DNA of 62,747 nt. Origin: Proteromonas lacertae. Taxonomy: Eukaryota. Numbering within the stretch: position 1 is the first letter of the stretch; every line of letters begins with the position of its first letter. Under the pieces are notes generated by a model. It saw only the letters and a program-made list of their open reading frames with translations, was not told the DNA's origin and made no database searches. The DNA is taken from positions 1 through 62,747 of the forward strand of contig NGBS01000907.1 in assembly GCA_002245135.1 (NCBI GenBank), read 5' to 3'. A program made the translations under genes and the position numbers. This document shows positions 1,249-62,673 of this stretch, piece after piece.

Positions 1249-1287
1249 TTTAAAATGTTATTAATTATTATTTTCATTTTATATATT

Positions 1288-15553: not shown

Positions 15554-15592
15554 AATATATAAAATGAAAATAATAATTAATAACATTTTAAA

Positions 15593-16716
15593 TTATTTTA
15601 TATTCTTATTTACATTCATTGATTTAGGAATTGAATTAGATTCATTTCTCTTTCGACGAAATTGTTTTGTTTCTAACTCATGGCCTCCACTACTTGGTAT
15701 TTCTAACTCTTTTAAATCACTTGCTTTTAATACTTTTTCAAACCATTTATGTCTTAAACATTCACTCGCACTTAACCGATTATTTCCATCTAATACTAAC
15801 AGCTTATTTATTAAATCAAATCCATCTTCACTTAATTTATAATCTTCACCTTGTTTCTCTTTTCCTATCATCTCTAAATGTTCTTTTAAACTTCTTTCTT
15901 TATTTAAATTCATATTCTTTAATAAATTACTGTTTTTCATTGATTTTAATTCCATTGGAATATCATTACTTCCACAAATATCTAATATCATTTCTAATTG
16001 TTCATTTTCTTTCGTTTTATTGAATATTGCTTTTCCTACTAATAATTCACCGATTATACATCCTACACTCCACATATCAACACTGTTATTATATTTTGTA
16101 CTTCCCAATAATAATTCAGGAGGTCTATACCATAATGTTATTACTTTATTCGTATATTCTCTTTCCATTGATGATAAACTACGACTTAAACCAAAATCAG
16201 CTAGTTTTAATTCATTGTTTTTGTTTATTAGAATATTCGAACATTTTAAATCTCGATGCATTATTTTCTTTTCATGAAGAAACTTTAAACCTATCAATAA
16301 CTGATAACTGTAACATTTGATTGTCTCTTCATCAAACCAAGGAATTATCTTCTCTCGACTTAAGTCCATTAAACCAGATAAATCAGTATCACAGTATTCA
16401 AATACCAAATATACATCATCTCTCTCACCTTCATTTTCGGAAGCACATGTTGCGATTTCTTTCAACTCTACTACATTTGGATGTTTTATACTCTTCAAGA
16501 TTTTGATTTCACGAATTGCAGTTATTGGGAAACCTTCATGTTGGTGATGTAATTGGATCTAAATATATATATTATTCTAAATACTTTCTTTAAAGCAACT
16601 AACTCTTTGGAGTCTTTACTATGTGCTAAATACACTTTACCATAGGTTCCTTGACCAATTTGACCTATTTTAATCCAGTAATTAGCATCTCTAGCTTCAG
16701 ATGATGTTTTTATCAT
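15593..16716 (-). CDS. PITAIRE-type cyclin-dependent kinase (CDK12/13/CDKC/Ctk1-like), intact copy
   Basis: A 26-nt intron (16559-16584) joins VALKK to IQLHHQHEGFPITAIRE. Complete kinase motifs. Confidence 0.93.
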
Positions 16717-16833
16717 TTTTAAATTTTACTGAGGCTTATTTTTATTTTAATATGTTGTTACTTTTATGGGTAATTACATTCTTTAAACAATGAAAGACAC
16801 ATATAGACATACATTAATATAATAAAAATCAAA

Positions 16834-34498: not shown

Positions 34499-34645
34499 TT
34501 TATATTCTGTAGAATTTAAAAGCACATTTGTTTCTTCGTGTATTGGGTTATATAATGCTCTATTGATCCCATCTAACTGTGTGAGAGATAAATTAAAAAA
34601 ATTTCGGTTATTCCAAAATTACATTCTTTTATTCTGTTATATGTC

Positions 34646-37600: not shown

Positions 37601-37995
37601 CAATTTGTAGTTAGAAATATACCAATTATTATAATAGATGATAATATCAGTGAAAGTAATCTTCAAAATGCAGTAAATAGAATCGTAAATGAATGTTCTG
37701 ATTCTAATGTAAAGATATTTTCCACTATAATTGATCCTTTAATGGATAAAGTTTTATTTACTAGTGTAAAACTAGATAGTAGCATAATTCACTTAAGAAC
37801 TATAATACCAATTGTAAGAAACGAATCAAAATCAGCAGTTGGCGTACAAAATTACAATTATTATGTATTTCCACTTTACAGTATTTTGAATAATAATTTA
37901 GCAGGTGTTATGATGGATGCTGTAGAATACTCAGATCCAAAAATTTTCGAAATAGTACCTAGAAATATTGTAATGGATATCTTTACACAATTGTA

Positions 37996-38033
<38 letters not shown>

Positions 38034-41000
38034 TATAGAACTTTATTCTTCAATCTAATTACTGATTCAGAATTAGATGAGATATATTATCACTTAAAAC
38101 CAAATAATTACTTGTCTAATAGTTTATTTGTTTGCAGTTATAAAACTAATGATAGTAATAATGAAAAATATACTGCTGATGGTTTATATTTAACAGCAAT
38201 GGGAATTAATGGATTTGCATCTGTTCCAGTTGTATATTATATACTTTTTTTTTATAACTATTATTCTTTATAGAAAACCTCAGAAATTACTGTTTGTAAC
38301 GTTGAACAATATCCAAAATCATCATCAAAGACATTCAATGTTGGTTATATCTATTACAGTTTAGAAAATAAAGAATATGCATCTTATTATGGTTTATATG
38401 CAGCATTAATGGAGTTTAATTCACACTATAACACTTCGTTACCTTTCATTACATTGAAAATGTTAGACTTAAGTGTAACTGAAGATATTGATTCATTTTT
38501 CACTGAATATGAGCCTATTGCCTTATTTGGTTGCACAGATGAAGGATGTTTGAATAATATGCTAAAATATATAAGAAAATATAATATTCCATTGTTTTAT
38601 CCACATAGTACAGTTGGAATGATATGTGAAAAGCAATTGTTCTTTGGTGGAACAGTTTTTCAACAAGAAATTAATGAATTATCATTACAATTAATGACAG
38701 AAATCCAAGAAAGAAATATAATTATAATATATGATAAGAATTCATCCTATGAAAAATATGGTTTAGATTATTTATATAAAGTCATAGAAATGGATAATTT
38801 AGAGTTATTAGATGTTATTAGTTTAATAGGAAATGAAACTGAAGAAGAATTAATGTCATATATTGAAAGAATCTTAAATCATAATATCAATCAAATGTTA
38901 TTCTATGATATGTGTGGAACATCATCTACTCATATTAAATTTTTACAATTGTATTATAAATATGTGTTAGTTAATAATGTTACACCTAAACATCCATTTT
39001 ATACAATATTAAGTTTATCAAAATCTTATGTTTCATTGTATTTAGATAAAGAGATGTTTCCATTTTTAACACTTTATTCTCCCTATTCTGATGATATATA
39101 TAATGAAAATATTTTAATATTTATAAGATATATGAGATTGTTAACTGGTAGTACTGATTATAATACTCAATCTGCTTCAATTACATATTCATTCGCCAAT
39201 ATGATATTTCAATCATTATTTAATCGCACAATAATACAAGTAAATGATAAAAACAATTACCAAATACCGAAGAATTGGTATTATCGATTAGTTGATAAGA
39301 ATTACCTTTCACCACATGGAGTTATTAAAATAAATAAAAATCATTACATCACTCAAAATATTAGATTATTAGTTTATAATGAAGAATTATGTAAATTTAT
39401 CACAATTTTTAATCGGATTACACCAATTAAACCAGATCCATTTCCATATTATATTACAGGAAAGATAATAGAATGTAATGCTAATATTTTACAACAACAA
39501 AATAATGGTAATAATATTAAACAGAAAGATCCATTAATTGTTGGATTTATTCATCCAATATCTGGTTTATATAGTAAGCATTTATATTATGTTCATTATA
39601 TATTCAAAAATACATTTGATAGAATCAATGAAGATGGTGGAATATTAGGAAGGACTTTAGTTTTATATTATGGAGATACAACTGATGATATGAATAAAAT
39701 GAATAGCACTGTGGTGAAGTTAATAGAAAAGTACAAAATTAGTGTTTTATTTGGTGGTTATCCTTCAATAGAAGGTAGAATGATTATTGAAAGTACTTGT
39801 GAAAAATATGATATTTATTTTTGGTATTTTTATAATGTAATTGGCACAGAATGTACTTCAAATACTGTCTATCTTGGTTCTTCATTTTTTTACAATTTAA
39901 AGACAGTATTATATTATTTAAAAGCTAGAAAGATTAATAGATTGATCATTTTCAATAATGATATAAATGTAGAATATTTTTTGAATAAAAATATGTTAGA
40001 TTATCTTATCAATCAATACAATATCCAGATAACTATTAAAACATTATCCACTTCATCGTTATTCATTTCTTTAATAATAAATATGTCAAAAGAAGAAAAA
40101 GAATCAGCTATCTTATTTCATCTGCCATTAACATCTGAAACAATTGAACCACCAGAAGTGTATTACAGAGCAATATCAATGTATAGTAAATTAGTGAAAT
40201 TTCCAATTGTTTTTTCATTGGATATCACAAGATTGAATTTGACACAAATTGATATTAAAAATCATTATATTGTTGAACCTTATCATCCAAAATATGGTTT
40301 ACCAATAAATGACACATTTGATTTGACATTAATGCAATATATTAATCCTTCAATTTATACATCCATCGCATATGCTTCATTATATTATTATAAAAATGTT
40401 ATAACATCAACAAATTCATTTGATCCACATGTTATATATCATTCATTATCAGCTGGTAAAATGGAAACATTAGAAGGATATACATCAATCTCATTATCAC
40501 ATCATATGTATAGACATTTAAGAATAGCTGAAGTATATTGGAATGAGAAAGTTATAAAAATGAGAATTGTATATGAAACAAAGACTTTAGTCGATTCATT
40601 TATCAGTGATTATTATAATGATGATAGTAAATATGGTAAGACATGTAATTGGGAGAGAATATATTATGATAATAATAACATCAATCAAGTATATATTTAT
40701 GGAGATAATGTAGTTGTTGATTATTATTATATTATCTATATTATTGATGATGTAAAGGATGATGAAACATTTCAACAAATATTGGAAAGTCATTTGGTGA
40801 ATAAAGCGTATAGTGGACATGAATTGGTTAATAAGAGAATGGTCTATTCAATTTTTATTAAATATAAAGAGAATAATGATGAAATTATTAACAAAATAAC
40901 TGAATATGCCAAAAATGAACATACTTTAGTTTTTTATGGTTGTATTACGAAACAATGCTTAAATGAAGTATCGCCAATACTAAATCAATATAATCAATAC

Positions 41001-44000
41001 ATTATAACGTATTATAACAAAGGTAACTTGTGTCATCCAAATATAATCAATCTCTCTCCAACTCCCAACCAATATGTGACAAATATTGTGCCATATTTTA
41101 TGGGTAGAGATTTTTGTTATTTTATATTCATACAGTCAGAAAAGGAAGGTGAAATTGAAAGAATTAAAGAATTTGAGGCATTGATCAAATTGATTGGTTG
41201 TTTTTCAAAAATTGTCCAATCATCTTCCATTATATCAAATACTTTAGCAATTGATAATGCAATTGAGAAAAACAATAGAAATCTGATAATATCATTTAAT
41301 TATTATCCTATATTAATAAATTATAGACAATATGATAATGTATCAGTTTTATTCATCGATTTACATTACAATCAAAGTGTTGTAGAAGATACCTCATTTT
41401 TCTATTATTATACCTTCTATTTTGCGTTAATAGATAGTACTCTTGATCCATTCCCTAATGTATTCTCGTTTGTGTTAAATTCAACAGCAACTCATATTAA
41501 TTATGTTAGTTATTTATCAATAACAGCAATTTATGATATTATAGAGAATAATCCAACAATAACAAAATCAAATGATATAATTGACTTGTATTTAAGGAAA
41601 GAAATATTAATCAATTCAAATACATATAGATTTAATAAATTCAACAATTTAGAAACAGCAATGACGTTGCTCAAACCAATATATCCACTGTCTACTAGTC
41701 CATTATATGAAATATCTAAAGTATTTCAAGTAGATATATCAAAACCTTCATCATTTTCATTATATCAAGAAGAATATAGAAATATAAAATGCAATTTCTC
41801 ATCTCCAGCAACAAACTATCAAACTAACATTCCTACTAAATTATATGGTATATTATACTCAACAACAGGAATATATGAAATGTTAGAAAGGCAGGTAATT
41901 GTTGGATTATTTATTTCACTACAAAATGCTATTAAGAATGATGATATTAATAGTGATTACCGATCTGTGTTTGAAGTATATAATACAAAATCAAGTAATG
42001 TTGAAGTAATTAATGGCATATTACATTTCAGTAAGAATGAAGATTTAGTTGCATTGTTTGGAGGAAATACATTAACTACATTTGATCTAATTAGTAAATA
42101 TATATCAATAGTAAAAATACCATTTTTCACTCTTTTGACACAAACTAAAGATACTCCAATTAATAAATATATATTCTATTCAAGATCTGCAAAACAGATG
42201 TACGATCCAATATTTATATATATGAATTCTCATTTTCCTAATCGTATATGTTTATTATTAGGTTATTCTGATGAATTATCATTTGATATTTATAATAGTT
42301 TAAGAAATAATTGTGGTGAAAGTGATATAGTTTTATATAATAGTAAATTGATGAATCCTATGGATGAATGTGTTTGAACAATTAAAGAAATATGATTCTG
42401 CTTCACTGTTTATTAGCTTTAAAGGATTAGATTTGATTAGTTATGTAAAAAAAGCATTTGAGAATGGTTATTTTACATCAAATTATAATCATATATTTTG
42501 GAATTTGAATTTAAACAGTTATCAATTCTTGACTGAAAAAAGAATTTCATATTATTCTCCAGTTTCATTTGATGTTATTGATGGAATGGATGTTTATTAT
42601 AATGGTAATAGTAAGATAACTATGGATGAAGAAACATCATCTTTTGATCAAATATTCTGGCAAAGATTAGGTTTTGATTATTATGTAATGGACAGTTCAT
42701 TTTTAGAATATGCTCAAATGTCATTATGCGTTAAGAATATAGATAAAAATAATAGAGGAGATATTACTCAGATGTGGAAGAAATCAATTGTTACATCTTC
42801 AATTACTGTAAGTTATACAACTTCAAATGTTATGTCACATCCTTATGCTTTACTTTTTACTGATAATCATTTTTCCTTTCCAGCTGTATCAACAGTATTA
42901 AAATTAGAACAAACTCAAGATTCTATCAATAATTATGGATTTAATGAAACGGATGGTTTATATTACACGTTGGATTATAATTCTCCTTCTTTATGGAAAG
43001 TAAATGATGTTTTTATGATTGGCATTATTGTTGAAAGAGGTTATAAAACTTCTAATAAAATTGATTATAATTATTTCTACGGATTTATTGCTGGTGTTGA
43101 TTATATTAACTTTAATGGAGGAATTCAAAGTCATTATGTTAAAATATATTTTGAAACAGTTGAATCGTTTTTAAATTCAAATTTATCGAAATTGAAAATC
43201 AATACTTTCTTTGTAATGACAAATAATGAACATTTCTCTGATATAAAAGGTAAAATTAAAGATTATAATCGTAAAGTAGAAACATCAAATAAAAAGTATT
43301 TGTTTTATATTCCCAAAAACAGTATTGTAGATGGTAATAATTGTAATTTGGAAATTGCGTTTACAGGTCCATCATCCTCTCAACTTGTTTTTTTTATCAG
43401 TGATATTCTTATGCAAAAATATATTTATCATATATCTATAATGTATAATACCCAAAATGAATATTCTAAATCTGTTGCTAGTGAATATGTTAAATCATTA
43501 ACTCCAAGATATGTATTGGATAGTCTAATTGAGTTTAATAGTGAAGATGTTGATTCAATCGGTGATTTAAATAAGTATTTTAGTAATAAAGAAGATTATT
43601 TATCAGCAATTTTAGTAATATTTGGTCAAGTATCATATATTTCAGAATTAGTGATAGAAAAAATATTCACTCAAATTGATAAAAGCAAATATTTTGTTAT
43701 ACAAGATATATATCGGATATTCTATACCAGATTATGCATTACAATATTTAGATTCAACATATCAGATTTCTACATTCTTTCCTGAATATAAAGGATATAA
43801 TGATGAAAGAGTGAGAAATTCAGTTAGAAATTTTGTTAAAGAAATAAAGGAATCATTTGGAAATGATATATATGTGGATGAACCCGTATATTTAAGTTAT
43901 TTGGCAACTAAAGTTTGGGCTAATTTGATACAATCTTCTTATCAAGATAATCAGAATGCTAGTAGTAATTATACTCAAATAATGAATGAAGGAGAAGGTT

Positions 44001-46654
44001 TATTTGATAGATTAAATGAAATACAAATCTTAAGTACAACAGGATTGTTTAAAATGAGAAAAAATCATCAATTGTCACATCTTTTGTTTTTAGGTAAATT
44101 TTATAGTGAAAAGAGTAAATATGAGATAGTGTTTTCATCAACTAACGGTTATTCAACCTATCTTAATAGTTTATATGACAATCCATCTTATATCTGTGAT
44201 TTATCATATGATAGAATAAAGAATAATTTGAATGTTACCTATTCTGTTACAGTTTATAATATTATTATTATATTAGAATATAATATAGATGAAAATATAA
44301 GAGAAATGTTTTATGATTATTATAAAAGTATTGTTTTGACATTAAGATCAATAACAGATGAATATAGTAACAAAGAAAAATATCGAATATTTACCATCTA
44401 TTTTGAGAATATAGAAGACTTGAATAATAAGATTGACAGTGGTATATTATATGGATTTAGTAATAGTAGTAAAAATATAAGTAGTTCATATAATGATATT
44501 CTAGCTGCAATTATGATAAGCGATTTGGTTAATTATCTATCAGTTGAAAAGAAGATTGAATATTTGGAGTTATTGTTCTATATTGGATTATGTTATGAAG
44601 ATGTAAAAAGTCAAGCTAATGTAATTCCCATATCTTTATCTCAAAATCAGATAATGAATATTATTCAATCTTTTATTGAGTATCAAAACATTAAGAATAT
44701 ATTGTTGTTGATAAATAATAACACAGTTTCATTGGATGATATGATTAAAAGAATAGAAAGTATTACAAGTAAGAACGGTGTAACTGTTCATCAAATTATG
44801 TTAGCCAATAGTTGTGAAGAATTGATAAACAAATTAAATGAGTTTTTTATGATAGAGAGATTGTTGTATAATCAGCAACTTGGTGTAATAAATCATTTTA
44901 GATATTATTGTTATAAAGAAATTATTGACTTTTTCAGTAGTGGTTCAATTCCAACTTCAAATATAAAAATATTACATACAGAAATATCAGATTCATTAAT
45001 AAGAAAAAATTCATTAAAATCAGTTGGAAATTACTTCATTTTTCATTCTAATGAAGATTTTAAAACTCACTCTATCAGTGATTTATTCCAACCAAATAGT
45101 TATATACCATTAAATGACTATACAGTTATTGGTTATACATTTGTGAATATGTTTGTAGAAGCTGTTAAAAAAGCTTATAAATATAAAGGAAATGAAATAA
45201 TAGATCCAACAATAGTTAGATATGGATTATATGATGTTGAATTTACGAATGAAATTAGCACTTACAAAATCACTTCATCCAATAGATTTGAATTAGAAAT
45301 GAAAATATGTGAATATTCATCACATTTAACATTTATGCCAATAATTAGTGAATATTTAAAAAGTGAATCAACTGTAAATTATGGTAAAATGCTTAAAAGA
45401 GAAAGTCCATTATTATCGCTAACCATCTCAACTTGTATCATTATTGCAATAGGTGAAATATTGAATATACTGTTTTTATGTTTAATCTATAAAAATCGTA
45501 AATCTACAGTAATTATTCAATCTAGTTTATTCTTTTCAATGTCATTGAATTTTGTTGGTTTTATTAATCATTGTGTTGCAATATTGTATATATTACCAGC
45601 TGATATTAGTGAATTATTCTGTGCTGTTAGAGTAATAATATTCATCTTTGCATTAGATGAATGTTTATATATATTCTTTATAAAAACGTGGAGAATTCAT
45701 GTAGTTGTTAATAATCGAACTTTAAGTAAAACTTCGAACAAAGCAAAGATGATGAAATTCTATTTATTAATAGTGTTACTATTACATATCTTAAGTATAA
45801 TTATCTGGGAAATAATTAGTCCAACTAAATTAGAGAAAGTTGAAGCAGATAATTCTGATTTGTTAATAACAAGTTATTATCCAATATGTGTTCATGATGA
45901 TAACTTTACGTATATATATATAATTATCTTTTATTATATGAATAGAATAGTTCAAACATCAGTAATAATATTCTTTATGTTGTGTTTAGGTTATCTTGCC
46001 TTTAGAACTCGTGATGTAGATGAAGCATTTAGTGATTCAAATGCAATAATAGTTGGTTTAATAATCATTACAATCGCTTTAGTAATCTTAATTCCAGTAT
46101 CTGAGATGTTAGAAATGAAAAATGAATCTGTATTTACTGCCTTTATTCTGAGTTTTACAACAACAGCTGTAACATTTTTAATAACAGGATATCGAATATT
46201 TGAAGCTCATTATGATAGAATAAAGAATGAAGAAAAAAGAGGATTAATCGATTTATTATCAATTGGAACAAATAGAATCTCTCCAACCTCTTCCATTGTT
46301 TTACCAAATAATATTCATAATAATAATAATAATCGACTACTACAAACACCACTACCACCATCTCAACAACAACAACAGCAACATACAATTGGTCAAGATC
46401 AATCTCTGAATTTAGTTGAAAGAATAAATATCAGTAATAACACTACTCCGACACAAGATTTAAGTGAAAATAGACTATTTGATAGTAGTAATAACAATTT
46501 AAAGAATAATAATAGTGAATATTTAGAAAGTGGTAGAAGCCCATTTGAAAGTAATACAACATTAGAATGTAGTTATGTAAGTCGAGGTGTAAGTGGAGTA
46601 AGTGGTTTAACTCATGAAGAATGTGATAGTAGTTTAAATTTAAATAAGAAATAA
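34646..46654 (+). CDS. Giant class-C (GABA-B-like, 7tm_3) GPCR with tandem type-I periplasmic-binding-protein (UrtA/AmiC-like) repeats
   Basis: Signal peptide. Repeats such as IVGFIHPISG...INEDGGILGRTL...VLFGG and YGILYSTTG...VALFGG. C-terminal 7TM with KNRKSTVIIQSS, IKTWRI, LAFRTRDVDEAFSDS. Short introns plus apparent frameshifts at ~42370 and ~43710. Confidence 0.78.
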
Positions 46655-48197: not shown

Positions 48198-48217
48198 AAT
48201 AATAGTAAATAAAGGTT

Positions 48218-48302
48218 CTGGCACACCGAGCCGTATGACTCGGGCTCCTGGCACACCAAACCAAACTTTTTAAAAATACGTGACCTATGTCATATTAGGT
48301 CA
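48218..48302. repeat. Candidate terminal motifs of the element
   Basis: CTGGCACACC twice (48218, 48248) around CCGAG/CTCGG; TGACCTA/TAGGTCA inverted pair at 48281-48302. A GC-rich island in AT-rich DNA. Confidence 0.6.
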
Positions 48303-49379: not shown

Positions 49380-52300
49380 ATGAACCCTTTCATCCCTCCT
49401 TATTATTATTATTCAAACTTTAATTATTATAGTCCACCACCATTTGGAGCACCTTATATTCCTCCTCCACAAAATTATGGATTTAATCCCATGCCCATGC
49501 CATATCCAGGTATGGCACTTCCTAATATGTATGAACCACCTCCACCTATTCAAAATATTCCAGTAGTTAGAAATTATATTCCACCAAGAAATCTAGTTAC
49601 AAATACAAATCCTGGTTTCAATTATTATCCTGGAAATATAGGAGTAGATTCAACACCTCAAATTAATATTCCTGAACCAGGATTTGTAACACCACCTCCC
49701 AAGAGAAGATTAGATTTCGAAAACATAAGTCCTCCAAAAATACAAAGAAAAGGAGGTATGCAGGTTCCAATGCCTAATCCTAATCCAAATCAACCTGTTG
49801 TTGTTGTTAATCAACCTCCACCAAATGCACAACAGCGTAATAGAGTAGCAGATTTAAATTTATCTTATCAAGAAGAAAGAGATTTAAGAGAAGCAAGTGA
49901 TATATTAGAAAATCATCCTACAAAATTATTAAAATTACCATATGAAAAGAGATTATATTATATGGACTTAATTCAGAGAAGTACAGATAATTATAGTAGA
50001 ACATATCAAATTAACTTTTTAAATGATGTAAATGGTAAGGATCCAGATGCTGTTGTTGAAATTATAACTGATCCTAGTAGCCCATTAATTACTAAAATAA
50101 GAGAATATTTAGAAGATGTTAAATATATAAAAGTAACATTAAGTTTTAGAAGTGGTTATATAGGAGCAGACGATCCAGATTATAATAATCCAAATGGTAA
50201 TAAAATTACAAATTGGGTATTCTTAGAATGTAGACCTGTAGTTATTACAGAATCAGAAATGAATGTTGCACATAAAATATTAAAAGATAGAATAAGAACA
50301 GAAATGGGACCTTTATGGCATACTGAAAAATCAAGTTTAAAATTTAGACATGTTGGTGAAGTTGAAGTTCAATTAGTCAAAGCAACTGCTATGGCAGGTA
50401 GTGGTAAAAATAAAGAACTTCCAGATTGGATTAGAAATAGAAAATGTGTTATATCAATAGATAATAATAAAGAAAATGATCAATTATGTTTTCTATATGC
50501 TATAGCAGCAGCATTTTTTCATGGTAATAATAATAATAAGAATTTAAATAGAGTAGAACAATATAAAGAATATATTAGAGTTAACTACAATTATAGTATG
50601 TTATATTTCCCAGTAGATCCTATTAAACATAAAAAACAAATTCATGAATTTGAAACAATAAATCATATAACATTAAATATATTCAAAATAACAGATAAAG
50701 AAGTAGTTCCAATATATGTAACACATATAGATAAGTTCAATAATTATCCACATGTAAATTTATTATATAATGATAAACATTATTCTACTATTACAAAATT
50801 AAATGTAATATTAATACCTAAAGGAAAGAAGTGTAAAAATGGTTATCCTAGATGTAATTATAGTTTTGCTTTATTATCAACAGATGAAAAAAGAATACAA
50901 CATGAAAAATATAATTGTCAACAACATAAAGGTATTATAAGAAATTTCCCTGAGAAAAATATTCAATTAGAATTTAAGAACTTTAAATATATGCAACTAA
51001 TACCTATAGTAATATATTGGGATACTGAAGTTTATCAGGAGAAAGTAACAGATCCAATTTTAAATGAGAAAGGTATATTATCAAAGCATATATTATCCAG
51101 TTGGTGTTTATATGTTGTATCAAAATATCCTAATATATATCCTAATAAAATTGAGTATGATTTTAAAACACCTAAAGATAATGAAACAGATTTAGAGGAT
51201 AGATTAATAGCTAAATTTATGGAAATACAAAAAGAAATATTAGATTTATATGAAGAAAAATTAAAAAATCCAGAAAAAATGATAGGATATAATAGAGAAG
51301 ATCCTAAAAATAAATTGAATTATTGCATATACTGTAAAGAACCATTTGATTATAGGAATAAGAATAAGAAACCTGTTTTACACCACGACCACTTTAGTGG
51401 ACAATATATAGGTAGAATATGTAATAATTGCAACTTCCATGTATGTTTAAATAATATGCCAATCCCTTGTATTGCTCATAATTCCAAAAATTATGACAAT
51501 AATTTCATTATTAGAGGATTGTCCAGATGGGATAATAAGTTAAGAGATGAATTTTGTAAAGAAAATAATATTGATCCTAATGTAAATTATGCTTCAGATA
51601 CTGAATCTGATAGTGATACTGAAGAAGAAGAAGATAATACTAATTCTATTCCTGTTCCACATCAAGATAGTGATACATTTACTCCATTACCTCCTTATAC
51701 TAATGGCTTTATAACAGCAAATAAAATAAAAGATTATGTAAAAAATTTAAGAAAAGAAAAACAAGAAGAAAAAGAAGATAATAATAATAATTTCAGTATG
51801 AGTCCATTACATGATTCTTTAAGTGATATGGAAACTCAAGAAGCTGAAAGTGAAGTAATCCAAATTAATAATGAAGAAGTTAATGCATTGTTAGAATTAG
51901 AAGAAATGTTAAGAAGGGATAGTCCTAGAAATGCGGAAGATGTTATAGATGAAATAGATGAACAATCTGCTTATAGAATTATTAAATGTAAAGATGGTAA
52001 AATAAGAAAATATAAAAACAAAAAACAATATAAATCACAATTATCAGTATTACCCAAAACAGATAATAAATTTTTATTAATAAAGTTCAACAAATTATAC
52101 TTTATGGACTCTTATCAATTCTTACCAAGTTCTTTAGATTCTTTAACAAAGTCATTATATACTCAAGCAAAAAGAGATAATGGAAATTATCAAAAATATT
52201 TTAGCTATGTATATGAAGATATTTATAAAAAATATTCTGCTCCTGGTAAATTGGATCATGATATGAATATTGATGCTTTTATCCATAAATGGTGTTTATC

Positions 52301-54287
52301 TAAAGGATATTTTCCATATGAATATGTGGACTCATTATCTAAATATTTCAATACTTTTGAACTACCTCCTAAAGAAGCATTCTATTCAAAGCTAAAAGAT
52401 GATAATACAGTAACAGATGTTGAATATGCTAGTTGTCAGGCTTTATGGAAAGTTATTAGATGTGATAACTTAATGGATTACAATTTATTTTATCTCAGAT
52501 TAGATGTTCTTACATTAACATGTGTATTTGAACATTTTAGAGATGTTATATGGAATAATTTTACTTTGGATCCATTATGGCATTGTAGTTCACCTGGTTT
52601 ATCTTGGAGTATATTCCTTAAAAATTGTGATGTAAAAATTGATTTAATAAGTGACTCTGATATTTATGACTTTATACATTCTGGATTAATAGGTGGGATT
52701 TCTATGGTTGGTAGTATGAGATATGCAGAGTCTTGGAATCATTATCAACCTCAATGGCAAGAGAAAAATAAAAAGGAAGTACAGGATCCAGATAATCAAA
52801 CATATATTATGTATATGGATTATAATTCTTTATATCCAAGTACTATGGCTAGTATGAAGTTACCATATAGTGATTTTGAATGGATTGAACCAACTACTGA
52901 AAATGTTAAGAAAATATTATCATTACATTACTATGAAGAACAAAGAGAAAAATATTACAATACAGAATGGATTAATAAAAATATGTATGGATATATTCTG
53001 GAAGTAGATATTTCTCCTCCTAGTAATAGTGATGAAAGAAAAAAATTTGCTGAATATCCTTTGTTACCTGAAAGAAAAATAGTTGACTATGATAATTTAT
53101 CTGAAATACAAAAGAAATGGGCAGAGTCTTTAGGATTAGTTTCAGAAGTTAAAAATAATATTGATAAAACATATAAAGTCAAAAAGTTAAAGTCAAATGT
53201 TCCTAAAATAGTATGTGATTTAACAACAAAATACAACTATGTTGTTCACTATCAATATTTAAAATTTGCATGTGAAATGGGTTATGTTATACATCATATT
53301 CATAGAATTATCAGATTTAAAGAGTCTAATTATGCACATAACTTTGTAATGATGAATCATAACTTAAGAAGACAAGCTAAGTTGGAAGGAAGGGATGCCG
53401 ATGCTGATACTTTTAAGCTTATTTTAAATAGCGCTTATGGAAAGACATGTGAAAATACTGAGAATAGGTGTACTTCCAAATTAGTTAATAATGAAGAAGA
53501 CTTTTTACAGTGTACTTCTAATCCATTTTATAGAAGTTTTATTGCTATAGATAATAGTAACTTACGTATATGCAAATTTCAAAAATATAAATGCACTATT
53601 GATAAACCATCTTATATAGGTATGAGTATATTATGTGAATCTAAAAGGTTAATGGCTCAGTTCTGGTATGGACATTTATATAGGAAATATGGGAGTAGTT
53701 TAAGATTATTGATGAGTGATACTGATAGTTTCATATTTATGGTTAAAACTAGAGATTTCTATATGGATATTATGAACGATCCACATTTTGAAAAGAAAGT
53801 TGATACTGGTAATCTTAATAAACAATACTTAATAACTAGAGGTATACACTATTCAAATGTTAATCAAAGTTCAGAACTTAACTTATTAAAAATAGAAGAA
53901 AATAAGAATGGTTTATACTCTATTACTAGATTTGCAGGATTAAAACCTAAAATGTATGCCTATGAAAAAGTAAGAGTAGATGACGATATACATTCTGTTA
54001 CACATGATAGTAGAGCTAAAGGAGTTACAACTGGATATAGAATTAAAACTTGTGATTTTGACTTTTATAGAAAAATATTAACAGATGCTGAAGATGAAAA
54101 GTCTTACAGAGTTGATAAAATCAAACAATATAGTTTCAGAAGTGTTAACCAAACTTTATATACTATGGAACAAAATAAGTTGGCTTTCAGCATATTTGAT
54201 TCTAAAAGGTATTATTTAGATGTTTATCATAGTATTCCTTTTAATGATTATTATCCACCTATTATTAATAACACTACTAATGTTTGA
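49380..54287 (+). CDS. polB: Protein-primed family B DNA polymerase (Polinton type) with vOTU-like and endonuclease VII-like modules
   Basis: ExoI YWDTE, ExoII HNSKNYD, ExoIII YLRLDV, motif A DYNSLYP, motif B KLILNSAYGK, motif C SDTDS, KPKMY, RAKGV. Also DQLCFLYAI...KHY and CIYC...HHDHFSG...CNNCN. Confidence 0.96.
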   Translation: MNPFIPPYYYYSNFNYYSPPPFGAPYIPPPQNYGFNPMPMPYPGMALPNMYEPPPPIQNIPVVRNYIPPRNLVTNTNPGFNYYPGNIGVDSTPQINIPEPGFVTPPPKRRLDFENISPPKIQRKGGMQVPMPNPNPNQPVVVVNQPPPNAQQRNRVADLNLSYQEERDLREASDILENHPTKLLKLPYEKRLYYMDLIQRSTDNYSRTYQINFLNDVNGKDPDAVVEIITDPSSPLITKIREYLEDVKYIKVTLSFRSGYIGADDPDYNNPNGNKITNWVFLECRPVVITESEMNVAHKILKDRIRTEMGPLWHTEKSSLKFRHVGEVEVQLVKATAMAGSGKNKELPDWIRNRKCVISIDNNKENDQLCFLYAIAAAFFHGNNNNKNLNRVEQYKEYIRVNYNYSMLYFPVDPIKHKKQIHEFETINHITLNIFKITDKEVVPIYVTHIDKFNNYPHVNLLYNDKHYSTITKLNVILIPKGKKCKNGYPRCNYSFALLSTDEKRIQHEKYNCQQHKGIIRNFPEKNIQLEFKNFKYMQLIPIVIYWDTEVYQEKVTDPILNEKGILSKHILSSWCLYVVSKYPNIYPNKIEYDFKTPKDNETDLEDRLIAKFMEIQKEILDLYEEKLKNPEKMIGYNREDPKNKLNYCIYCKEPFDYRNKNKKPVLHHDHFSGQYIGRICNNCNFHVCLNNMPIPCIAHNSKNYDNNFIIRGLSRWDNKLRDEFCKENNIDPNVNYASDTESDSDTEEEEDNTNSIPVPHQDSDTFTPLPPYTNGFITANKIKDYVKNLRKEKQEEKEDNNNNFSMSPLHDSLSDMETQEAESEVIQINNEEVNALLELEEMLRRDSPRNAEDVIDEIDEQSAYRIIKCKDGKIRKYKNKKQYKSQLSVLPKTDNKFLLIKFNKLYFMDSYQFLPSSLDSLTKSLYTQAKRDNGNYQKYFSYVYEDIYKKYSAPGKLDHDMNIDAFIHKWCLSKGYFPYEYVDSLSKYFNTFELPPKEAFYSKLKDDNTVTDVEYASCQALWKVIRCDNLMDYNLFYLRLDVLTLTCVFEHFRDVIWNNFTLDPLWHCSSPGLSWSIFLKNCDVKIDLISDSDIYDFIHSGLIGGISMVGSMRYAESWNHYQPQWQEKNKKEVQDPDNQTYIMYMDYNSLYPSTMASMKLPYSDFEWIEPTTENVKKILSLHYYEEQREKYYNTEWINKNMYGYILEVDISPPSNSDERKKFAEYPLLPERKIVDYDNLSEIQKKWAESLGLVSEVKNNIDKTYKVKKLKSNVPKIVCDLTTKYNYVVHYQYLKFACEMGYVIHHIHRIIRFKESNYAHNFVMMNHNLRRQAKLEGRDADADTFKLILNSAYGKTCENTENRCTSKLVNNEEDFLQCTSNPFYRSFIAIDNSNLRICKFQKYKCTIDKPSYIGMSILCESKRLMAQFWYGHLYRKYGSSLRLLMSDTDSFIFMVKTRDFYMDIMNDPHFEKKVDTGNLNKQYLITRGIHYSNVNQSSELNLLKIEENKNGLYSITRFAGLKPKMYAYEKVRVDDDIHSVTHDSRAKGVTTGYRIKTCDFDFYRKILTDAEDEKSYRVDKIKQYSFRSVNQTLYTMEQNKLAFSIFDSKRYYLDVYHSIPFNDYYPPIINNTTNV

Positions 54288-54357: not shown

Positions 54358-55725
54358 ATGTATTTCGGATGGGATCCTGCTAAAGCATTTTTTAATACTA
54401 TGAATGATGTAGGTAACTTAATGGATAAAAATATACAACATTTACCTAAACAACCTAAATATCCTGAATCTTTGCAATATTATATGAATTATGGTAGAGA
54501 TGGTATACCTAGAGAACCTCCTACTACTGACTATAAATTATATCCTAATCCTGAATATTCTCAATATCAAAATCGTTTACAACAACTATATAATAAATAT
54601 CATTATCTAAGCGATAGAGATTTTATTAAAATGGTAATGAATCCTGCAGATAATAATGAAGTACCACCACCTATAGATGCTATAAAAGAATTTTTAGCTA
54701 GACAACCTGGTCATCAAATAGTAGACTTTCAGTATAAAAAGGATAATCCTTTCGTTAGTATTAAAAAGCCTGGTTGGTTCCAGATGGATATAGTTTATTT
54801 TTTACCTGAAACACATCATCTGTATTTTATTGAAACTAACTCTAGAAAAGTATGGGTAGTACCTTTGAAAAGAGAAGATGGAAATACTTGTTTAAATGCT
54901 TTCTTTTCTTGGTATTATAAAGAAGATCAAGAAGCTTTTTTAAATCCAAACTATCAACCTAATATAGTAGCTAAAAGAAGAGTTATTAGTATATTAAGTG
55001 ATCAAGATGATAGTTTTAATAAAATAAAAGAATTTTGTGATACAGAAGGTATAAATACTTATCAAAAAAATCCTTCAGAACATAGAATAATGAGTGTATT
55101 AGATAGAAGTGTATCTATGGTTAAAAAATTATTATATAAACATCTTGTTGAAATAGACTTTCCTGATCCCTTTCGTTATAGAAATCAAACTCATGCTAAA
55201 AGCTTTCCACCTAGTGCATATATGAATCAGTGGCTTACTAACTTTAATCATGAAGTATATAAAGTAGTACAAGACTATAATAATAAACCTCATCCTGCAT
55301 TAAAAGGATATACTCCTAATGAAGTATATCATTCTGAATTACTACAGAAAAGAGTATTAGTTGAAAGCATAAATAAAAATGTAGATAATGAATTTAAATT
55401 AGAAGATAAACAACGATTTAAAGTAGGTGACTATGTTAGATTTAAAGAAAGAAGAAGACAATTAGATAAAATAACTACTTGGAGTGATGATGTTTATATG
55501 ATTATAAATAAGTTTAGATTTTCTTATCAAATAGGTGATACTAATGGTAACTTTGTACCTAATGTTAGTAATCAGAGGTTTAAGCATTATGAATTAGAAT
55601 TAGTAGAAAGAGCGCAAGATAGAAATGCTTATTTTAGAGCGTATCAAGCAAACAGAAGATTTTATAATCAACATTTTAGAAAAACATTAAAAAGACCAGG
55701 ACTCAAAAGAAAGGGAATAGTATAA
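54358..55725 (+). CDS. Retroviral-like (rve) integrase 1, Polinton type
   Basis: FQMDIV, ILSD, LDRSVSMVK, YNNKPHPALKGYTPNEV; C-terminal FKVGDYVR...WSDDVY SH3-like domain. Confidence 0.9.
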   Translation: MYFGWDPAKAFFNTMNDVGNLMDKNIQHLPKQPKYPESLQYYMNYGRDGIPREPPTTDYKLYPNPEYSQYQNRLQQLYNKYHYLSDRDFIKMVMNPADNNEVPPPIDAIKEFLARQPGHQIVDFQYKKDNPFVSIKKPGWFQMDIVYFLPETHHLYFIETNSRKVWVVPLKREDGNTCLNAFFSWYYKEDQEAFLNPNYQPNIVAKRRVISILSDQDDSFNKIKEFCDTEGINTYQKNPSEHRIMSVLDRSVSMVKKLLYKHLVEIDFPDPFRYRNQTHAKSFPPSAYMNQWLTNFNHEVYKVVQDYNNKPHPALKGYTPNEVYHSELLQKRVLVESINKNVDNEFKLEDKQRFKVGDYVRFKERRRQLDKITTWSDDVYMIINKFRFSYQIGDTNGNFVPNVSNQRFKHYELELVERAQDRNAYFRAYQANRRFYNQHFRKTLKRPGLKRKGIV

Positions 55726-55762: not shown

Positions 55763-56362
55763 TTAAAGTTCTGATATTTCAATAAGTGCTCTGCTATTTA
55801 CAGGCACTTTTGATAAATTATTTCCTTCTTCTGGAGGAGGAGGAGGAGGTTCTTCTTGTTTAATTTTGGGTTTTGGAGTTTCTTTTTTTTCTTTAATAAT
55901 ATGTTCTTTTGAAACTCTTCTTCTTTTGTTATATTTTCTATCTTCTTCATAATCACTATCATGATCACTATTATCACTACTACTACTACTATCACTACTA
56001 GAACTATCATTTTCTATATCAACATCTTCATACAATAAGTTTTCTATTTTATCTGAATTCACATATGAGGGAATTTCTGGATATTTGAATGTAGACCACC
56101 TATATATATTAATTTCTGTTTTCTTTAGAAAATACCACTTTTCATTATTTGATTTAGCATCTTCTGAAAATTTTTGAAAATCACCTGTAAATTGAATATG
56201 TAATGTGTTGAATTTGGCAAATATTTTTATATTACTATTAACATATTTTATTTCATCACAATTAGTTACAGCTATTGTTACTATATTATTTTCTAAAAAT
56301 TGATTCTGAAATTCTATATTATTATGTAAATTCATTATATAAGTTGTTGGTAAATATTTCAT
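55763..56362 (-). CDS. Element-encoded hypothetical protein with an acidic/basic tail
   Basis: 199-aa ORF with SD-rich, KRRR and poly-P segments. The frame stays open ~40 codons upstream of the ATG. Confidence 0.65.
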   Translation of the reverse strand: MKYLPTTYIMNLHNNIEFQNQFLENNIVTIAVTNCDEIKYVNSNIKIFAKFNTLHIQFTGDFQKFSEDAKSNNEKWYFLKKTEINIYRWSTFKYPEIPSYVNSDKIENLLYEDVDIENDSSSSDSSSSSDNSDHDSDYEEDRKYNKRRRVSKEHIIKEKKETPKPKIKQEEPPPPPPEEGNNLSKVPVNSRALIEISEL

Positions 56363-56455
56363 ATAATCATATAAATCAAATTGAAAATCATTAATTAATA
56401 CATTGTTATTTGAATTAAATTTTATCTGGATTTTAGAAATAATAATGAATAATAA

Positions 56456-56742
56456 AGGGAAATAGCACAGTGTGCCATTTCCCTATATGTGTTTTTGATT
56501 CAAAAAAATAGCCGTTTCAATGTGTGCTATTTCCCTATATTGTTTTTTCATCATTAGAAACGTTTTTAATGCATAATAAATATATCAATCGATTTCTCTA
56601 TTTATGCTGGGCTCATATATGCCCTTAGTTTGACTTTCTGATCATAATCGAAATTTAATTTTCTTAAAAAAATTCAAAAAACAATGATAGATAGGATGGC
56701 CACCATACTGTGTGATATGACACCATATAGTGACCATCCTAT
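56456..56742. repeat. Non-coding cluster of palindromes and short repeats
   Basis: AGGGAAATAGCACA-G-TGTGCCATTTCCCT (56456-56484), a third copy TGTGCTATTTCCCT (56523-56536), GGGCTCATATATGCCC (56609-56624), and ATAGGATGG...CCATCCTAT (56691-56742) enclosing CACCATA twice. Confidence 0.8.
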
Positions 56743-56915
56743 ATCAAATAAAACAAAATATAAAGTTCAAGCCAAATCACTTTTGAAACGCATCTATTTT
56801 TCTATTATTGATATTTCTTATAAGACTTGTTATAATGCTAATTAATTATGTAAATTATGAAAACAACACTCCCACACAAACACAATATATCATTTGAACC
56901 AATTAGGACCAGAGA

Positions 56916-57714
56916 TTAATAATCATTTTGGTACTCTGGCTCCTCATCATCATCTACTATAAATTGTGACAAGTTATTATCATCCTCATCTTCCTCTGTA
57001 CTGGTGTCTTCTTCCTTTCTGTTTGAATTTCTTTTCTGATTGGTCTTCTTTCTTTTGAATCTTGGAGTTTTAGATGTACTGCACTTTCTTTTTGTGGATA
57101 CCACCTTTAACAACTTGTTGTTGTTGTCATCATCATCATTATAATCATCATCATCATCATCCAGATTATCAAACAACGATGCTATAGAGACTTTACTACT
57201 TACTATACTTTCAGCAGTACTTCTGTAAACTATATCTCCTTTCGAATTCTTGTTTTCTTCTTTTTCGCATTTTGCTAAATCGTTGTCACCGAAATGTATG
57301 ATATACATACAAGTCAGTTCCACCATGTCCTCCATTGCATGGTCAAGCATACGATCATACTATTAATTCAAAATTGAAATATATATTAAATGGATATACG
57401 ATGCTTTTGTCCAGATCCTCTTTATACATGATATTACATAGCAGGACAGACATCAACACTCTAGACATTTTTAATCTTTCATGACGATCACTAATCTTTT
57501 CAATTTCTGTGAATCTTTTGTACCATGTACTGAAACGCCTTATACTGAAGTTACCATTCCAGCTATAGACATATAATAATATATTATACCTATAACGTTG
57601 CAAATCTTTCTCATGTTCTACAATCGTCTTAAAATTCTCACATAAAATTTTATATATGCTCGGATTTGGATCATTAATGAAGCTGTTTTTGTATAGTATC
57701 TTCCAGTTGCTCAT
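56916..57714 (-). CDS. Element-encoded hypothetical protein with one spliceosomal intron (57360-57399)
   Basis: ATG 57714 (MSNWK). Removing the 40-nt GTATAT...TAATAG joins KSI to YDRMLDH in frame. Acidic tail with RFKRKK. Confidence 0.7.
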
Positions 57715-57878: not shown

Positions 57879-59165
57879 ATGTTTAGCACTAATAGTTACG
57901 ATCCACATTTATACAGCTCATATAGCAACCAGAACCCATATCCTGTCAAACCGTTACCTACAAATGGTAACTTATCACTTGCAACATATATTAACCATGG
58001 AGCACCGAATATTACACATCCAACAAGAGAGGCTTCGTATGAAGACCAAATGTCAAACCAAATTGCCCAATATCGATCACGCTTAGATGAACTATATAAA
58101 AAATATTATTACCTTAATGAAAATGAATTTATCAAAATGACACAACATTTGTCTAGTATAAATGATATAGCTCCACCACCAGATGTAGTACGTGAATACT
58201 TAAGGAGACAACCTGGAAAACAAATTGTTGATTTCAAATATAAAAAAAATAATCCATTCGCAACTATCAAAAAGCCAGGGTACTTCCAAATGGATATAGT
58301 GTTTTTCTTACCTGATATGGAACATTTGTATTTTATCGAAATGAATTCAAGAAAAGTATGGGCAATATTTATGCCTAATAAATATGGTGATATTACATTG
58401 GATGCATTTCAGAAGTGGTATTATGAAACAGATGCCTATGGAAACAAAACACATAAAAATGTGGTAAGTATCCTATCAGATGCTGATGCTAGTTTTTCAA
58501 ATATCAAGAAGTTATGTGATGCTGAAGGAATTTCATATTTTCAAAAAGATGGTTCAGAGCATAAAATAGAGTCATTATTGGATAGATCAGTGAGTGTGAT
58601 AAAAAGACTATTGTACAAACACTTGGTGGATCTGGGATATGATGCACCTACATATATGGCAGATATTGATCACAATGATAAGCATATTATACCAGATATG
58701 AATTATAAATTGAAACTCGATAGTATAATACAGGAAGTGATAGATGACTATAACAACAAGCCATTACCAGGAATTAAAGGATATACCCCAAATGAGGTAT
58801 TCCATAGTCCAGAATTACAAAAACAAATATTACAAAAATCAATTAACTACAACTTAAAGAATTATGAAAAATTGGATCATACTGGTCAAAATTTCGAAGT
58901 AGGTGATTTGGTGAGATTCAAAGAGAGAAGACGTAAAATGGATAAGAACATATACTGGTCAGACAATGTATATAAGATAATCAAGAAAAATCGATATTCA
59001 TACAATTTAGGTGATATCAATGGGAATGACATTCAAGGTTTTTCATTAATTCGATTCAAACACTATGAGTTGCAGTTAGTGAGAAAAGATGATGCACCAA
59101 CCACATGGTTTAGAAAAATACTGGAGAGACCCAAGAGAAAGAAGGGAGACAAATCAATATTGTAA
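57879..59165 (+). CDS. Retroviral-like (rve) integrase 2, paralog of integrase 1
   Basis: FQMDIV, ILSD, LDRSVSVIK, YNNKP..GIKGYTPNEV, FEVGDLVR...WSDNVY. First ATG at 57879. Confidence 0.9.
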   Translation: MFSTNSYDPHLYSSYSNQNPYPVKPLPTNGNLSLATYINHGAPNITHPTREASYEDQMSNQIAQYRSRLDELYKKYYYLNENEFIKMTQHLSSINDIAPPPDVVREYLRRQPGKQIVDFKYKKNNPFATIKKPGYFQMDIVFFLPDMEHLYFIEMNSRKVWAIFMPNKYGDITLDAFQKWYYETDAYGNKTHKNVVSILSDADASFSNIKKLCDAEGISYFQKDGSEHKIESLLDRSVSVIKRLLYKHLVDLGYDAPTYMADIDHNDKHIIPDMNYKLKLDSIIQEVIDDYNNKPLPGIKGYTPNEVFHSPELQKQILQKSINYNLKNYEKLDHTGQNFEVGDLVRFKERRRKMDKNIYWSDNVYKIIKKNRYSYNLGDINGNDIQGFSLIRFKHYELQLVRKDDAPTTWFRKILERPKRKKGDKSIL

Positions 59166-59216: not shown

Positions 59217-59416
59217 GGGCATTGGATAGACTAGCTACGATGAGGGCTGCGTTTCTAATTTATAATTATTTATTTATTTATTTATTAAATTAATTTCACA
59301 AGGAATTTATGGAAGTTTAATAATAATTACTACTTGGATGTGTGTTGTTTAATATTGCGCCATTGAAATTCGGCTTGAATCATCCTGGCACGGTATATCT
59401 AAATGCCCTTTTTTTT
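59217..59416 (+). ncRNA. Candidate Pol III structured RNA 1 (~192 nt, end-paired long stem)
   Basis: 59217-59249 pairs with 59371-59408 (about 30 bp, 6 G-U). T8 follows immediately. No T4 run inside despite AT-richness. Degenerate B-box GGCTTGAATCA. Confidence 0.6.
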
Positions 59417-59423
59417 ATTTAAT

Positions 59424-59519
59424 TGGGATCTGATAGACTGTGCAAGGAAAAAAGAGTCATGCAGCTGGCATTAGTGGTTCGATTCCTAGCACAGACTATT
59501 AGTAATCCCATTTTTTTTT
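59424..59519 (+). ncRNA. Candidate Pol III structured RNA 2 (~87 nt hairpin)
   Basis: 59424-59449 pairs with 59483-59510 (24 bp). Perfect B-box GGTTCGATTCC at 59476-59486, A-box-like TGGCATTAGTGG, T9 at 59511-59519. No cloverleaf. Confidence 0.7.
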
Positions 59520-59581: not shown

Positions 59582-59989
59582 ATGCTTACACTACCACCAC
59601 AGATTGAATATAAATTACCAGAACTTGAATCCAAGGTAACAAAGAAATATCATTTAAGTGGTCCAGACATATACTTGGATTTGTATAGCCTACAATTCCT
59701 TATATTTTTTTATTATCGAAAACCTATATATCAATGGTATTTTGAGTTAACACACAAAATGATTAACATGATCATGAGTCAACGTTTGATATTAGTGTTT
59801 GTAGGTCCTTGTGACTTAGGAGATAGAGATTATCCGAAAGTTACATATACACCAACAATGAAAAAAGTAATCATTAGAATGCCACAAAGATGTTTTAATG
59901 GTAAGATGCCAATATTCTTCAAATGTACTCATATGGATAGAGAGATGATAGAATATATTGAAACTCATACAATATTTCACCACACATAA
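59582..59989 (+). CDS. Element-encoded hypothetical protein (135 aa)
   Basis: ATG-started intronless ORF; no recognised motif. Confidence 0.6.
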   Translation: MLTLPPQIEYKLPELESKVTKKYHLSGPDIYLDLYSLQFLIFFYYRKPIYQWYFELTHKMINMIMSQRLILVFVGPCDLGDRDYPKVTYTPTMKKVIIRMPQRCFNGKMPIFFKCTHMDREMIEYIETHTIFHHT

Positions 59990-60034: not shown

Positions 60035-62673
60035 TTATATTAATCCAAATTGTTTTTTCATTAACCTAATTTTTGCTTCACCCACTATTGTATTATAGTC
60101 AGTAGCCTTTTTGAAACTACACTGATCTCTTAAAATATTTTTCAAAAAATTAATAGCAAAAAAACCACAGTTGGCAGTATTTGAATTTTGATTCTGTACT
60201 CCATTGATTTTAAGTTCATACTTTTCATTATGATACTTCTTTAATTTTTTCAAATTTTTTTAAATTCTTCCAAGTGTTGAGGATCTTCACCAAATGAATC
60301 ATAGTACAGGAATTGCTTTTTGATATTGTCAACTACTAAGGCCACCCAATGACCTATAGAATCAGGGCTAGCTTGTGTGGTGAGTGTATTGATTATGATT
60401 CCCCATTGATTCTTCTTTTTGGGTATAGGAAGTACAAGCTCGTCCCAGCAGAACACTCCCATGAACTTTCCATGAAAATTATTGAACTCATTTTTCACAA
60501 TTAACTCTATATCAAAATTCGATAAGGCATCTGAAGTGATACTGTTATACAAAACTTTCCTACGTGAAATTAATTTCTTTACTTTTTTATTATTTCCATT
60601 ACCTATTCCAAAGTAACTCATAGCTTCACTGAGTTGTTTTGCTTGATCTAAATTACTCACTGCTCTACCAAAATTAGTGAGTGAACTTGGAATTGTTTGT
60701 TGTGAACGTTTCACGTAGTTATCCATTTTGATTGCATTCTTGTGTTGATATGGTGTTGGTTTTAACCAATTCAATAAACCACCTGCATCTAGCAAACCAA
60801 AACAAGCAGTCAATGCACTGAATACTGTTCCTATACCTGCAACAGTTTGTAATGTACCTGTTGGATCAGCTGCAACAGCAGTTTTTGCCATTGATGGCAT
60901 AGCTTTTGATAATTCACTAATACCTTTAACTGCTGCTGCAGCAGTTGTTGCATCACCTCCATTTGCAGCTGCAGCTACAGTTGCTGCTGTTTTTAATGTA
61001 TCACCTACATTTTTTGCATCTATATTTCCAATATTAGAAAATTTGTAGAAGAATGGAACTAATTGAAATAAGTATCGAACATATGGATGAGTATTGAACA
61101 TAAATGAAACACCAAAGTTATACAACAAGTCTACAGGTAACCATGATTTTTGAATTGCTTCAGGTAACATTGACTTAACTTTTTCTGAATTACCATAATA
61201 CAAGTCAGTGATAGCAGGTAATCTACCACCTGACAGCATACGAATTATTTCATAGTAGTCGAAAATGAAGTACCACATTACATACAAGAACCCTGATGTT
61301 GGTAGTTTAGATTTTTTCCATAACCAATAAGCTAAACATGTCATTACTATTGCACGAACATACTTCATTGCATGATCTACTTCAAACATTTGAGGAGTAA
61401 CTCCACCTACCAAATATGACTTCATTGTATAGTATATTTGTGGAAATATCCTAAATACATTCTCTACACACAGGAACAAATTACCAGCAAAACCCATAAA
61501 ATCAGATTCACGTAATGAATCAAGTGCTTTTTGAAACTGTGAATTTTCAAATTGTGCCCATGAATTACAAGCAGTTTTCACTAAACCAATAGCTATTTCA
61601 TATTTTTGTTTATTATCTGCATTCACCCACTCTTGAGGAAGTGAGTGACCTAACTTCTCTCTGTTATAATCAAAGTTAATGAAATCTCTACTATTTTGTG
61701 ATGCTATTTCATTCAGTTCTCTATATTTATCTTCATTAATCCATGTATGCGGTTCTTTATCTATATCTATAGCACTATTCACCAGTTCTTGATTTTTTGG
61801 ATCTAATGCCCATCTATAAAATTTTGATCTTTCTAATATCTCTTGATCATCCATATATCTTTGTGCCTTTTGATTATTCAATGCAATATATTCTTTTACT
61901 TTTTCAGCTCGATTCGGATCAAAATTATATGGATCTGAATATTGATTGATCTTACTTACTCCATCAACTAATTCATTTTGCAAATACTCCTGCTGTAATA
62001 ATAGTTTGTTATAATATTCTATTGCATCTTTATCATTACCTGTTAATTTATCCCAAGTTGAGGTCAACCAATCTTGTCTATAATTTTTATAGGCTGCTAA
62101 TTGAGGATTCTTTTCTATAATCTCTTGCAATGATTTATAATTTTGTAATTTAGGAAATTTTTGTAACAAAGGATCTGTAACTCTATTCATTCCATTATCA
62201 TATGCCTGAACATCTGCTTCTGTAACATATTCAGGCCAATTCAAAAGATAGCTTCTTGGATTAGATGTATCTAATTCTGCTAATGGGAATGTTCCTCTTA
62301 AATGTCCTTTTTTATGTTCACGATCTAGCATATCATAAAAATTAATATGATAATTGTTAGGCAACATTGAAGCATAATTATTAGTTAATGCATATTGAAC
62401 TTCTTTTCGAGCTTGTCTATTCAAACCTGGACTAAATAATTTATCATAATTCCAATTATAATCATATCCTACAGTTTCTTTTGGTATATATGGTTGAATA
62501 TATTCTGGTATTTGACTTGGCTGTAATTGTGATGTTCCATTATAAGCAGCACTAGCAGCATCATACATTTGTTGTCTTGGATTAGTAATAATGACATGCT
62601 CATTAGGACCAACACTTTGACCCACTCTTAATGGTATAATACCACTATTACCACCTAATTTCTTAGTAGCCAA
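60035..62673 (-). CDS. Large protein with hydrophobic and Ala-rich segments fused to a C-terminal adenain/Ulp1-like (clan CE) cysteine protease; 1-nt frameshift at ~60255
   Basis: FMGVFCWDEL, IINT, GHWVAL, YYDSFG in the 807-aa ORF; QNQNSNTANCGFFAINFL in the 72-aa ORF. One extra A in an A7 run fuses them. Start uncertain (first ATG 62568). Confidence 0.85.

Follow-up and report, generated by a model that had tools for sequence, protein, structure and literature searches.

What do two adjacent hairpin-forming units encode, if anything, in the gap behind an integrase-like gene of a mobile element? The window (the whole stretch of 62,747 nucleotides that was analysed) is eukaryotic DNA of about 25% GC, with host genes up to ~48200; a Polinton-type element with pPolB, two integrase-like genes and a protease spans the remainder, from there to the window end. 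The visible element amounts to 14.5 kb at 25–30% GC, its right end lying beyond the window, and the host part to 48.2 kb. The features considered here are as follows.

48204..48262, plus strand: probable left end of the element, with an AG start and a repeated GC-rich motif
49380..54287, plus strand: protein-primed-type DNA polymerase B (pPolB) of the element (PF03175, E 1.6e-17)
54358-55725: first integrase-like gene, a paralogue of the 57879-59165 gene
56450-56544: hairpin H4, with a GGG start, a CCC end and T6 next on the plus strand
56676..56746, minus strand: H3, a third hairpin with T6 (z -6.78; rank 2 of 141 T6+ runs)
57879..59165, plus strand: second integrase-like gene, with 52 nt between its end and unit 1
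59217..59416, plus strand: unit 1, a 192-nt panhandle plus T8, with a 35-pair terminal stem and an A/U-rich interior of ~110 nt
59425..59519, plus strand: unit 2, an 86-nt panhandle plus T9, with a terminal stem of 23–24 pairs (95 nt in total)
59582..59989, plus strand: 135-aa ORF, 63 nt downstream of unit 2, which may not be a real gene
60250..62568, minus strand: 772-aa ORF with a cysteine-protease domain at its end (PF02902)

The AG start and repeated motif at the left end fit the end pattern of Polintons. The two integrase-like genes have diverged to 47% identity, and units 1 and 2 follow the second only. This second gene gave no direct Pfam match; its assignment came via relatives found by profile search, five of the nine scanned matching rve (one above the curated cut-off), which suggests a retroviral-type integrase. 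Family searches with the 135-aa ORF were without match. PF02902 in the 772-aa ORF lies just under the cut-off of 20.7 (19.7 bits, E 8e-4), and the reading frame is interrupted at an A-run near the end, the rest of the domain being in another frame; this is either an assembly error or a real break. A protein family search of the visible 14.5 kb gave no element-coded RNA polymerase. Close protein relatives comprise six integrase-like proteins at 43–56%, pPolB at up to 69%, and, for a host protein, up to 93%; the nearest ones come solely from run assemblies. The Polinton-like context proposed in a preliminary description of this DNA is therefore borne out by the genes around the units. The host part, for its own account, contains a 4-kb inverted duplication (1-3963 and 12871-16837) whose copies are 97% identical and cover host genes, a kinase among them, and a gene cluster at 33173-46654 that combines periplasmic-binding-protein domains with a family C GPCR; the latter is similar to diatom-dominated clusters, which is a lead only.

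We then determined the ends and folds of the units. Unit 1 has GGG at 59217-19, CCC at 59406-08 and T8 at 59409-16; after a spacer of 8 nt, unit 2 has GGG at 59425-27 and CCC at 59507-09, followed by an A and T9 at 59511-19. Two adjacent units that start with GGG and end in CCC(A) plus T8 or T9 were thus found at 59217..59519 exactly as first described. In minimum free energy (MFE) folds, the terminal stem of unit 2 has 23–24 pairs with one G-U, in agreement with the earlier figure of about 24 bp; that of unit 1 has 35 pairs, rather than about 30, and the several G-U pairs noted in it number seven rather than six. The arms of the units have 44–56% GC as against 25–30% for the element, and the interior of unit 1 has 16%. 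Among 200 dinucleotide shuffles of each unit, none folded as well as the real sequence (z -3.43 on the plus and -2.49 on the minus strand for unit 1, -4.81 and -4.79 for unit 2). Because the values for unit 2 are nearly equal on both strands, folding energy alone fixes no strand for it. When duplexes ending at T6+ runs were ranked over all 141 such runs on both strands, unit 2 came first (-32.3 kcal/mol), H3 second and unit 1 third (-27.1 kcal/mol), with a median of -9.9; the best duplex among the 95 runs of the host part, at -21.0 kcal/mol, is clearly weaker than those of the units. In a sliding 100-nt fold, the segment over unit 2 ranks fourth of 2506.

The arms of the two units resemble one another, most plainly in two blocks.

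59225..59232 (unit 1) and 59432-59439 (unit 2), plus strand: shared 5'-arm block GATAGACT, a sequence match
59383..59393 (unit 1) and 59484-59494 (unit 2), plus strand: shared 3'-arm block, with TCCTRGCAC at 59383 and 59484

The anchored arm similarity between the units was reached by none of 20000 shuffles, for the 5' as for the 3' arm, and, when the terminal GGG or CCC was left out, by 22 and 14 of 20000 (~0.001). On this sequence comparison units 1 and 2 are paralogues, as had been proposed from the same two blocks. With the stem register aligned manually on the folds, and for two sequences only, 26 positions can be compared: 14 are identical pairs, three show changes on both sides, two are changes to or from G-U, one is a pair gained or lost whole, and six are paired in one unit only. 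Repair between DNA arms could produce some of this covariation. We also counted G-U against A-C on the T-run strand, using a Watson–Crick-only register that is blind to strand. The worst-case count over units 1 and 2 and H3 was 7:0 (p 0.008), and over units 1 and 2 alone, G-U 4 and A-C 0. Such retention of G-U is harder to account for by DNA than by RNA, and the earlier preference for RNA-type stems over a DNA cruciform is supported, in that G-U is tolerated and changes are compensated. Only the terminal stem is kept between the units while the interior varies, which may mean, as a weaker inference, that function resides in this stem.

Signals for RNA polymerase III (Pol III) were sought with general A-box and B-box consensus motifs.

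59476..59486, plus strand: strict B-box, located at +52 in unit 2, a tRNA-like position
59232..59242, plus strand: candidate A-box-like site at +16 of unit 1, with one mismatch to the consensus

Neither strand of the window carries a second strict B-box, and the claim of a perfect B-box some 52 nt into unit 2 holds; a strict box arose in 3 of 100000 shuffles of unit 2 and a relaxed form in 14 of 100000. The tRNA T-stem pairs that flank a B-box are not kept, and the best A-box-like sites of unit 2 have two mismatches to the consensus. In unit 1 the best B-box-like site has three mismatches, a chance-level match (1208 of 2000 shuffles). The proposed Pol III layout therefore stands for unit 2, with its B-box and T9, and is unsupported for the promoter of unit 1. 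Unit 1 could make use of the B-box in unit 2; the yeast U6 gene is an example of a gene with its B-box downstream. Unit 1 contains ten TTT and, as first observed, no T4; T4 was likewise missing from 0.4% of shuffles that keep dinucleotides, 3.5% of those that keep only single nucleotides, and 10 of 244 segments of matched composition. An (ATTT)n run inside unit 1 could give such avoidance alone, and the frame break in the A-run of the protease ORF suggests that homopolymer lengths may be imprecise, which weakens the count. Unit 2 carries A6 (T6 on the minus strand), and its plus strand is without internal T4. At two places, 56891-56911 (minus strand) and 59465-59486 (plus strand), an A-box-like 12–13-mer runs into a B-box-like site via a shared GG.

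The gap at 56362-56916 holds further hairpins. No other 100-nt fold in the window is as stable as that of H3, which is pre-miRNA-sized and followed by T6 and T7; it has three G-U and no A-C, lacks an internal B-box and shows no recognisable relationship to units 1 and 2. It lies 170 nt past a stop codon, and a B-box-like site stands 155 nt upstream of it, with three T4 runs and no T5 between. It is possible that H3 is a member of the same system as units 1 and 2. At the same time, H3 has the hairpin-plus-T layout without a B-box, so this layout need not mean Pol III. In H4 a single 15-nt arm is present three times, twice directly and once inverted, which allows alternative hairpins. A small hairpin at 56609-56624 (minus strand) has its first six bases identical to those of unit 1.

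None of these structures was recognised by searches for known families. ARAGORN found no tRNA gene in the units, as had been expected, and their fold is rod-like, without a cloverleaf. The Rfam check recommended earlier gave no family at gathering score for the units in the window and, in a local search, none below E 0.099; VA RNA and vault families were absent among the nine matches at E up to 10, and neither H3 nor H4 reached gathering score. There is no further copy of the units in the 62.7-kb window. Homologous DNA was sought in viral contigs, metagenomes and prokaryote genomes through the integrase-like protein with its 8-sequence alignment and through pPolB with its 4-sequence alignment, and gave no confirmed locus; phage records gave no match to the element. 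The pattern of 5' block plus B-box had 55 viral matches, none near element genes, 41 of them with an ARAGORN tRNA; the 3' block pattern had 17 viral and 110 metagenome matches, none with a B-box and none with BLAST similarity. One look-alike from the pattern matches (L136) was rejected as an unrelated gene region with an internal T4. A seed search with 21–25-nt 3'-arm products gave no target common to both units within the window. As a candidate signal for mRNA ends, the downstream motif of human-derived Blastocystis was set aside; it is not enriched in AT-rich relatives, according to the accessible part of PMC12129017.

We conclude that the feature is real and that the units are probably RNA genes. 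The explanation that we favour, with a probability of about 0.5, is that the element encodes them as panhandle RNAs made by Pol III, with VA RNAs as their analogue. That unit 2 yields a discrete Pol III RNA appears likely; for unit 1 the same expectation is only slightly better than even.

The units and H3 could instead belong to the mRNAs of the element, as structures of the 3' end, of termination or of a UTR such as those known from cytoplasmic virus-like elements of yeast; units 1 and 2 would then go with the integrase-like gene and H3 with a 144-aa ORF. Both hairpin clusters do follow a stop codon on the strand of the coding sequence, with co-directional genes on either side, and an internal B-box is lacking in H3; moreover, the accessible part of PMC6211774 describes pGKL mRNAs that end at a stem-loop plus U-tract. 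The pGKL loops, however, have little stability (median -7.5 kcal/mol, at 26 nt past the stop), and the polymerase that they serve is encoded by the element itself (same portion of PMC6211774); the visible 14.5 kb gave no such polymerase. This explanation also has to accommodate a unit 1 that closes over a 110-nt interior, it leaves the tandem pair and the perfect B-box unexplained, and the pPolB, first integrase-like and 135-aa genes are without such a hairpin within 80 nt past their stops. We consider it improbable, and to the same degree we doubt that the units are passengers, that is, a host Pol III RNA gene, a SINE or a Tourist-like MITE captured or inserted and then duplicated locally. 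Tourist MITEs have GGG/CCC ends and an A/T-rich interior, both of which the units resemble, and ATT on both flanks of unit 2 would suit a MITE-type 3-bp duplication, in DNA that is AT-rich; the 5' block, furthermore, occurs in tRNA D-arms and anticodon arms, as the 41 tRNA-associated matches show. The flanks of unit 1, however, differ (ATT and TTT), the tails on the sense strand are T8 and T9 rather than A-rich, unlike those of a tRNA-derived SINE, and the excess of G-U is unexpected for the terminal repeats of a DNA element. The absence of a tRNA, an Rfam family and a further copy in the window also speaks against a passenger.

The motif shared with the element end bears on another explanation, in which the units are cis-acting DNA elements: inverted repeats with a TRGCACA protein-binding motif (a promoter or origin relic), together with an isolated TFIIIC B-box that serves as a chromatin boundary. 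TRGCAC occurs at 48219, 48249, 56463, 56477, 56529, 59386 and 59487, that is, in the left end, H4 and both units, and sits 95–125 nt before three small ORF starts. Its extension TRGCACA[CG], defined after the fact and with copies in only three independent clusters, is found six times in the 14.5-kb element, always in non-coding DNA, whereas the 48.2 kb of host DNA has a single copy. Its presence in the left end, H4 and unit 2 keeps a DNA site in contention, but the folding of the units as DNA is weak and nearly strand-neutral (-14 to -17 kcal/mol), and the G-U excess, the two-sided changes, the T-runs at the stem base and the T4 avoidance are left unexplained; we judge this a little less probable again than the two preceding explanations. 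That the units are chance structure in a GC-richer intergenic patch is very unlikely. The features were, it is true, picked after inspection, and the (ATTT)n run may cause the avoidance of T4; nevertheless, chance would have to account for the folding, the paralogy and the B-box, for which the shuffle counts were 0/200 per unit, 0/20000 and 3/100000.

If the units are indeed panhandle RNAs of the element, host Pol III would produce two oligo-U-ended transcripts of ~195 nt and ~90 nt. TFIIIC would bind the B-box of unit 2, and Pol III would start at each GGG and stop in each T-run; for unit 1, it might depend on a TATA-like stretch farther upstream, on the unit's own A-box-like site or on the B-box of unit 2. 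The conserved 24-bp terminal stems are predicted to be mimics of dsRNA that occupy or feed the host small-RNA machinery, and might, on a weaker footing, titrate, or be cut by, a Dicer-type enzyme or titrate an export factor. This guess follows from adenovirus, whose terminal stem binds Dicer and Exportin-5 (accessible parts of PMC2777419 and PMC7589676), and a role as decoy or Dicer substrate is, by this analogy, conceivable rather than likely. It is more speculative still that Polinton-type viruses of protists make Pol III panhandle RNAs, here two paralogues and H3, that counter host RNA silencing. PKR is an animal protein, so the PKR half of the VA analogy is unlikely if the host is a protist. 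Were the units real RNA genes, Polintons, usually described by their proteins alone, would carry RNA genes missed by family searches; they would also give a testable lead on the origin of adenovirus VA RNAs, and a lead on what such RNAs target where the host lacks the interferon system of animals.

Among the literature matches listed (titles and abstract starts, with most subscription journals outside the scope), a VA-like or Pol III panhandle RNA of Polintons is undescribed, and no paper in the literature searched joins Polinton, VA RNA and polymerase III. In the accessible portions of the sources concerned, PolB-plus-integrase viruses of protists carry tRNA genes in some cases, with VA RNA unmentioned (PMC8502044), a survey of PLV genomes reports tRNAs and other Rfam classes and no VA-like RNA (PMC12220804), and a paper on viral Pol III RNAs leaves Polintons unmentioned (PMC4378190). 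PLVs and virophages are thus comparable in that Polinton-like elements hold non-coding RNA genes; those were found by Rfam and ARAGORN, whereas our units match neither (accessible part of PMC12220804).

The Pol III pre-miRNAs of BLV and the tRNA–pre-miRNA chimeras of a murine gammaherpesvirus are, like unit 2 and H3, pre-miRNA-sized, and are short Pol III hairpins of an integrated element; the units differ in having no tRNA moiety and, in unit 1, a 110-nt interior (available text of PMC4378190). EBER1 and EBER2 of EBV are likewise a pair of structured viral RNAs with oligo-U ends, but fold into many stem-loops rather than a simple panhandle, and the units lack an Rfam match; the pairing of EBER2 with terminal-repeat transcripts is loosely echoed by the motif common to the units and the element end (same part of PMC4378190). 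The units lie inside a mobile element and were without a match to the vault family of Rfam at E up to 10, in which they are unlike vault RNAs. Vault RNAs combine a panhandle, a B-box near the 3' end, a variable interior and tandem paralogues, and all of these recur here, the B-box in unit 2.

The closest comparison is with adenovirus VA RNA I and II, whose A and B boxes lie inside the gene, the A box within the terminal stem. They terminate in oligo-U, and Dicer and Exportin-5 bind their terminal stem (accessible parts of PMC7589676 and PMC2777419); they also carry complementary GGGU and ACCC tetranucleotides (PMC7589676, same portion). In so far as these sources describe them, the likeness comprises two RNA units, a linear dsDNA virus-type genome, a terminal stem of paired ends, a G start, an intragenic B-box (in unit 2 only) and an oligo-U terminator after the terminal stem, present here as T8 and T9. 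Unlike the VA RNAs, units 1 and 2 lack both GGGU and ACCC, have no apical stem and central domain and no Rfam match, are AT-rich, place the B-box in the 3' arm of one unit only and belong to a host that is probably not an animal. The units are probably a new variation on the viral Pol III RNAs, with a function known by inference only; by analogy they may work like VA RNA, but they are no member of that family.
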